A program made the translations under genes and the position numbers. The notes under the pieces are model-generated. The model was not told where the DNA came from and ran no database searches. It saw only the letters and a program-made list of their open reading frames with translations. Shown here in pieces: positions 9,653-25,339 of a stretch of 64,000 nt of DNA. Source of the stretch: Callorhinchus milii (Eukaryota); assembly GCF_018977255.1 (NCBI RefSeq), contig NW_024704747.1:22444001-22508000 (forward strand). The letters run 5' to 3'. How positions within the stretch are numbered: position 1 is the first letter of the stretch; each line of letters opens with the position of its first letter.

Positions 9653-25339
<15,687 letters not shown>

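Follow-up and report, generated by a model that had tools for sequence, protein, structure and literature searches.

The STAT1 locus

The window, i.e. the whole stretch of 64,000 nucleotides from Callorhinchus milii that was analysed (contig NW_024704747.1, positions 22,444,001 to 22,508,000 of the forward strand), contains the STAT1 gene followed by glutaminase exons. Its main features are given below in window coordinates.

9752..25339, plus strand: STAT1 coding span, 23 coding exons in a GT/GC-AG model, 752 aa
20380..20568, plus strand: SH2 exon with E632, unchanged, the reported dimer partner of K703 (PMC3532225, excerpts)
23014..23089, plus strand: phosphotyrosine-tail exon of the model, 76 nt, residues 687-712, the same in 4 of 4 runs
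23055..23057, plus strand: Y701 (TAC), activating tyrosine by homology
23061..23063, plus strand: K703 (AAG), kept, the SUMO acceptor lysine of mammalian STAT1 (PMC3532225, excerpts)
23067..23069, plus strand: A705 (GCA), in place of the consensus Glu
24157..24259, plus strand: transactivation-domain exon, P-M-S727-P motif intact

The translation of the 23-exon model is identical in every letter to P0032, the C. milii STAT1 protein of 752 aa, and has a tyrosine at residue 701, while an SH2 exon is a 100% match to proteins that carry the name Callorhinchus milii STAT1. Six Pfam families scored above cut-off (STAT_int, STAT_alpha, STAT_bind, STAT_linker, SH2 and STAT1_TAZ2bind, PF12162). The best PDB match was the STAT1 chain 8yyu_A with 1258 bits, as compared to 740 bits for STAT3, and in a quick tree of 43 rows, made without bootstrap, the 38 STAT1 rows formed one clade (SH-aLRT 96). 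The gene is STAT1, as the sequence-only reading had it, and is the only copy found in the genome. A degenerate tail pattern that allows K or R and E or A had a single match in the genome (G000), and the SH2 exon had four, the other three of which were recognized from their sequences as STAT4, STAT2 and STAT3; there is therefore no back-up STAT1, and a spare paralogue was ruled out. The codons had been said to stand in exact human register. The number at 701 is indeed that of 8yyu_A, but the agreement is partly coincidental, being reached via two one-residue gaps near 530 and 623 that cancel each other.

On C6 a STAT4-like exon precedes the matching STAT1 exon by about 28 kb, and the glutaminase exons, with two minus-strand frames recognized by Pfam, are found downstream of STAT1 on the minus strand, tail to tail, at about 28500-51300 of the window. 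The resulting STAT4-STAT1-GLS order is presumably also that of human. Two N bases occur in the glutaminase region, at 45407 and 47186.

Codons 23055-23072 read TAC ATA AAG ACT GCA CTC and encode Y-I-K-T-A-L. The canonical consensus psi-K-x-E (a hydrophobic residue, lysine, any residue, Glu/Asp) is absent at K703, where I-K-T-A lacks the acid at +2, exactly as had been read from the letters. According to the code table a single A>C change, GAA to GCA, would suffice.

Read support

Reads were consulted as Logan contigs, in which rare variants are dropped, for 4 of the 24 listed runs (X1, X5, X8 and X13, from 4 studies). In none of the four did exon 23014-23089 show an alternative letter, and three had intronic differences, so not every run merely repeats the assembly. 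The GT..AG joints 23089-24157 and 24258-25318 were present in 3 of the 4 runs; since none of the listed runs is on record as RNA, splicing was read directly from the contigs. GCA is thus confirmed in reads, and an assembly error at codon 705 was ruled out.

Origin of the alanine

The substitution was placed by means of a comparison set of 70 hand-picked STAT1 proteins, about one per species. IKTE occurs in all 18 rows of sharks and rays and also in lungfish, coelacanth, amphibians, reptiles, mammals and gar; bichir has MKTE. Residue 705 is glutamate in 68/68 rows other than two IKTA proteins, P0032 and P0121, an invariance that is not absolute, since Arapaima (P0027) and the salmonid, coregonid and cyprinid duplicates P0025, P0028, P0186, P0243, P0246 and P0248, all omitted from the set, also lack E705. 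Only two of the 355 near-invariant sites of the set are changed in both IKTA proteins, as L60M and E705A.

P0121 is a Logan protein from the 90% cluster of P0032, from which it differs at 29 of 752 residues. In the quick tree of 43 rows (no bootstrap) both are joined at SH-aLRT 99 within a chondrichthyan group (93), with a path of 0.048 between them that exceeds the path of 0.039 between Carcharodon and Mustelus. P0121 would thus appear to represent a second holocephalan species. Further holocephalan fragments were sought among shorter proteins, where IKTA was found in 0 of 19 matches.

Chondrichthyans are monophyletic, and since E is found in elasmobranchs as well as in bony vertebrates, the glutamate is ancestral for jawed vertebrates and the alanine derived. 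E705A probably arose on the holocephalan branch, a placement that rests on two sequences. Three options had been proposed for a SUMO-free STAT1, i.e. that the brake evolved later, was lost, or is compensated elsewhere, and the first two can be told apart here: loss agrees with IKTE in the elasmobranch rows and IKTA in both holocephalan proteins, whereas a later origin is contradicted by the I/M-K-T-E that elasmobranchs, lungfish, coelacanth, gar and bichir keep. An ancestral pre-SUMO state was accordingly ruled out. Further out, a hagfish fragment has the tail Y-I-P-T-K and an amphioxus STAT has Y-V-K-A-R, STAT1 orthology being implied for neither, and no lamprey sequence was identified among the eight named of 150 representatives.

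Taken together, it is hardly credible that the alanine is an artefact or an ancestral trait, whether through misassembly, a private allele, a second paralogue or a state of early jawed vertebrates that preceded the SUMO site. What room this leaves comes from contigs that drop rare variants, the number of runs (four), the quick tree and a lamprey orthologue that was not identified, against which stand the agreement of four runs from four studies, the single gene copy, the IKTA that P0121 shares despite its 29 differences, and the glutamate on both sides of the chondrichthyan split.

Loss of the site in other lineages

The cases outside C. milii rest on database proteins instead of reads. K703 is replaced in 11 of the 70 rows, namely eight galliforms, Scleropages and both sturgeon models. 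All eight galliform rows have IRTE, hence K703R (chicken, turkey, guineafowl, pheasant, ptarmigan, two quails and peafowl; P0155, P0163, P0162, P0168, P0165, P0062, P0063 and P0076), whereas the seven other birds of the set, including Anser, have IKTE; goose and duck are among the birds that keep it. The record of the basal galliform Penelope (P0103), from which K703R could have been dated within Galliformes, comes without the tail exon. Scleropages has IRTE whereas mormyrids keep IKTE; residue 703 is R or P in the sturgeon models, whose motifs are MRTE and IPTE; and within one cluster, Salmo records carry IRTE or IQTE. Three records of Arapaima gigas (P0027, P0395 and P0396) read Y-W-R-T-A, in which K703R is joined by an E705A of separate origin and pY+1 is Trp. 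As Scleropages has K703R only, E705 may have drifted in Arapaima after the lysine was lost. All 11 K703-substituted rows of the 70-row set retain E705, a hint that something other than SUMO also constrains this residue.

A broader tally of 318 fetched proteins gave IKTE or MKTE in 234 of 293 tails, 29 proteins being without a tail match. It excludes 142 representatives and 8 cluster members, is redundant because of isoforms, was drawn from among the best-ranked matches and used a pattern that favours conserved tails; it therefore shows recurrence of site loss, not its frequency. The suggestion that the chimaera residue resembles a disease lesion, implied to be rare, is thus weakened: the position is that of human gain-of-function residues, but the site is also broken in galliforms, osteoglossids and sturgeon and in some of the salmonid copies.

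Expected effect on SUMO conjugation

What loss of the acid may do has to be read from the mammalian literature. Excerpts of PMC3532225 give the STAT1 SUMO site as 702-IKTE-705 and, citing refs 11 and 13 of that paper, state that either K703R or E705A does away with sumoylation and increases transcription. The sequence-only reading held that substituting E705, as in E705Q, prevents SUMOylation; this was understated, since E705A itself is reported to be SUMO-null in the excerpts. The same excerpts describe the side chains of K703 and E705 as hydrophilic and directed away from the dimer core, and note epitope effects that concern antibodies sensitive to residues 703/705. For E705A they cite DNA binding like that of wild type (Song et al.), and they allow for effects independent of SUMO in E705A and K703R, with fewer for E705Q. 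SUMO blocks phosphorylation of Y701, breaks up paracrystals of STAT1 and accelerates dephosphorylation, and knock-in mice with SUMO-free STAT1 show slower dephosphorylation and are hyper-responsive to interferon-gamma (PMC3248180; PMC5266721, excerpts). By analogy with human E705A, SUMOylation of K703 is likely lost or much reduced in C. milii STAT1.

How much this matters is disputed. Whereas one study treats STAT1 SUMOylation as a necessary guard against interferon-gamma hyper-responsiveness (PMC3248180), it would be a minor tuner according to another, in whose excerpts mutation of the SUMO site leaves the activity of STAT1 almost unchanged (PMC3670247). STAT1 is described as unique among STATs in SUMO conjugation (PMC3248180); STAT5 is reported to be sumoylated at K696/K700 beside its tyrosine, even after mutation of its consensus sites (PMC3670247, excerpts), so that SUMO conjugation does not in every case require the acid at +2. 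An activating neddylation has also been reported at K703 (PMC13574159, excerpts). E705A might spare it and K703R would remove it, such that the two types of loss are maybe not equivalent; the galliform K703R would abolish this reported site as well.

E705Q and E705V are both listed as human gain-of-function alleles (PMC7991083, PMC12551681 and PMC13681578, excerpts), which bears out the earlier statement that substitution of E705 is such a lesion in human. The excerpts give 1 patient with E705V (PMC13681578) and one with E705Q in a transplant table (PMC12551681). Considered as a compensated pathogenic deviation, A705 has the same position as E705Q/V with a different residue. At the 87 human gain-of-function positions, one or both IKTA proteins differ from human at 11, in no case to the patient residue, and of these 11 only 705 is invariant in the other 68 rows.

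Search for compensation

The third option, compensation elsewhere, found no support in cis. Compared to three elasmobranch proteins the window's protein has no new forward or inverted SUMO consensus, with fewer present, and no holocephalan-only change was found in SH2 residues 600-615 or 626-661, which include E632. Nine other residues are holocephalan-only, none of them in SH2 or tail. Neither a gained SUMO consensus nor a change in the SH2 residues compared therefore offers itself as compensation within the window's protein. Its residues 695-698 are D-S-K-T, as in sharks, whereas P0121 has D-S-K697-I, which is absent from the window's protein. We take D-S-K697-I to fit the inverted SUMO consensus. 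A single match over cut-off to a PIAS-type PINIT exon in the genome weakly suggests that the SUMO ligase side persists.

These data bear on the idea that the brake is intact and E705A near-silent, either with K703 still SUMOylated under guidance by an E3 or SIM, or with SUMO moved to K697. It is favoured by the retention of K703 and its partner E632, the PINIT exon, the non-consensus STAT5 sites (PMC3670247, excerpts) and the tail of P0121. Yet human E705A is reported to be SUMO-null (PMC3532225, excerpts), the window's protein gained no consensus and has a shark-like D-S-K-T, and the K703R lineages would be left unexplained, for which reasons we consider an intact brake unlikely.

Interpretation

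The chimaera has a single STAT1 with a real, expressed E705A. We think it probable that this change is of holocephalan origin, that it removed or strongly reduced SUMO at K703, and that this loss is tolerated. Going by mammalian work, Ubc9 and PIAS would load K703 poorly without the acid at +2; poor loading would result in fewer semi-phosphorylated dimers and in a slower decay of pY701. The SUMO step would then tune signal duration without being essential, and because of this, and because the site was broken independently in other lineages, tolerance is the most likely outcome. The best reading is that a tuning modification was repeatedly dispensed with, rather than that a disease-like state became established.

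Alternatively, selection in holocephalans, galliforms and osteoglossids may have favoured an interferon-gamma response of greater strength or duration, or evasion of pathogens that make use of STAT1 SUMOylation, such that a natural gain-of-function became fixed. The focus of the changes is compatible with such re-tuning: E705A is the sole non-conservative change common to both IKTA proteins at the 355 near-invariant sites, non-conservative changes in residues 700-712 sit at 703 and 705, both of which define the SUMO site, at least four lineages converge, and the human alleles E705Q and E705V figure in lists of gain-of-function. The side chains of 703 and 705 face away from the dimer core, though (PMC3532225, excerpts), so that neutral change comes most easily at these two positions; the choice of site was made after the fact, and K to R is conservative. 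An adaptive origin is hence doubtful. Somewhat less doubtful, but still speculative, is a wider proposal in which the SUMO brake on STAT1 works as an evolutionary dial. Jawed vertebrates would have turned it off on four or more occasions, through precisely the two substitutions that serve as laboratory nulls, E705A (chimaeras, Arapaima) and K703R (galliforms, osteoglossids, sturgeon). Longer interferon-gamma signalling with phosphatase-resistant STAT1 assemblies might then be normal in these lineages, chickens included, and the immune disease of human carriers would be avoided by other means.

Chimaera STAT1 resembles mammalian STAT1, which has the SUMO site 702-IKTE-705 (PMC3532225, excerpts), in its domains, Y701, K703, E632, S727 and its position between STAT4 and glutaminase, and differs from it in having Ala as wild-type residue at 705 and no psi-K-x-E. 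The laboratory mutant E705A is the chimaera substitution and laboratory K703R the galliform residue. Unlike the laboratory nulls (E705A, K703R, E705Q and the knock-in mouse), the chimaera allele is natural and apparently fixed, and comes with many other differences from human. It affects the residue that is altered in the human alleles E705Q and E705V, but Ala is not a listed patient allele and no disease of the fish is implied. STAT2, STAT3, STAT4 and STAT5, judging from the tails seen, signal without an IKTE-type consensus; these are different genes, whereas the chimaera loss is secondary within STAT1.

In a literature search covering titles and the openings of abstracts, no report was found of natural loss of the STAT1 SUMO site in chimaeras, galliforms or fish, although the chicken residue may stand in some alignment figure. 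Natural wild-type alleles equal to laboratory nulls allow a direct comparison of one residue. Among single-copy genes the chimaera offers the cleanest case of a change at E705, and the galliform K703R is the most testable part, as it makes the question accessible in ordinary chicken cells with ducks or geese as controls. Mammalian STAT1-SUMO models may not carry over to poultry.

Further observations on the gene model

The intron after exon 18935-18987 of the model has a GC donor at 18988-18989. A second AG, six bases past the used acceptor (23010-23020), could remove two residues; 23014 is used in 3/3 spliced runs. Read-through of the tail exon's donor (23085-23093, GAA GTG TAA) would give a protein ending at V712, as mammalian STAT1-beta does. 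The shark records P0130 and P0131 terminate in the same manner; there are low-depth intronic contigs, which do not show the isoform. Decayed LINE-like fragments of reverse transcriptase and endonuclease were seen by eye in introns and upstream of the gene, at 21229-22500 and near 5400-6500 and 8400-9200.
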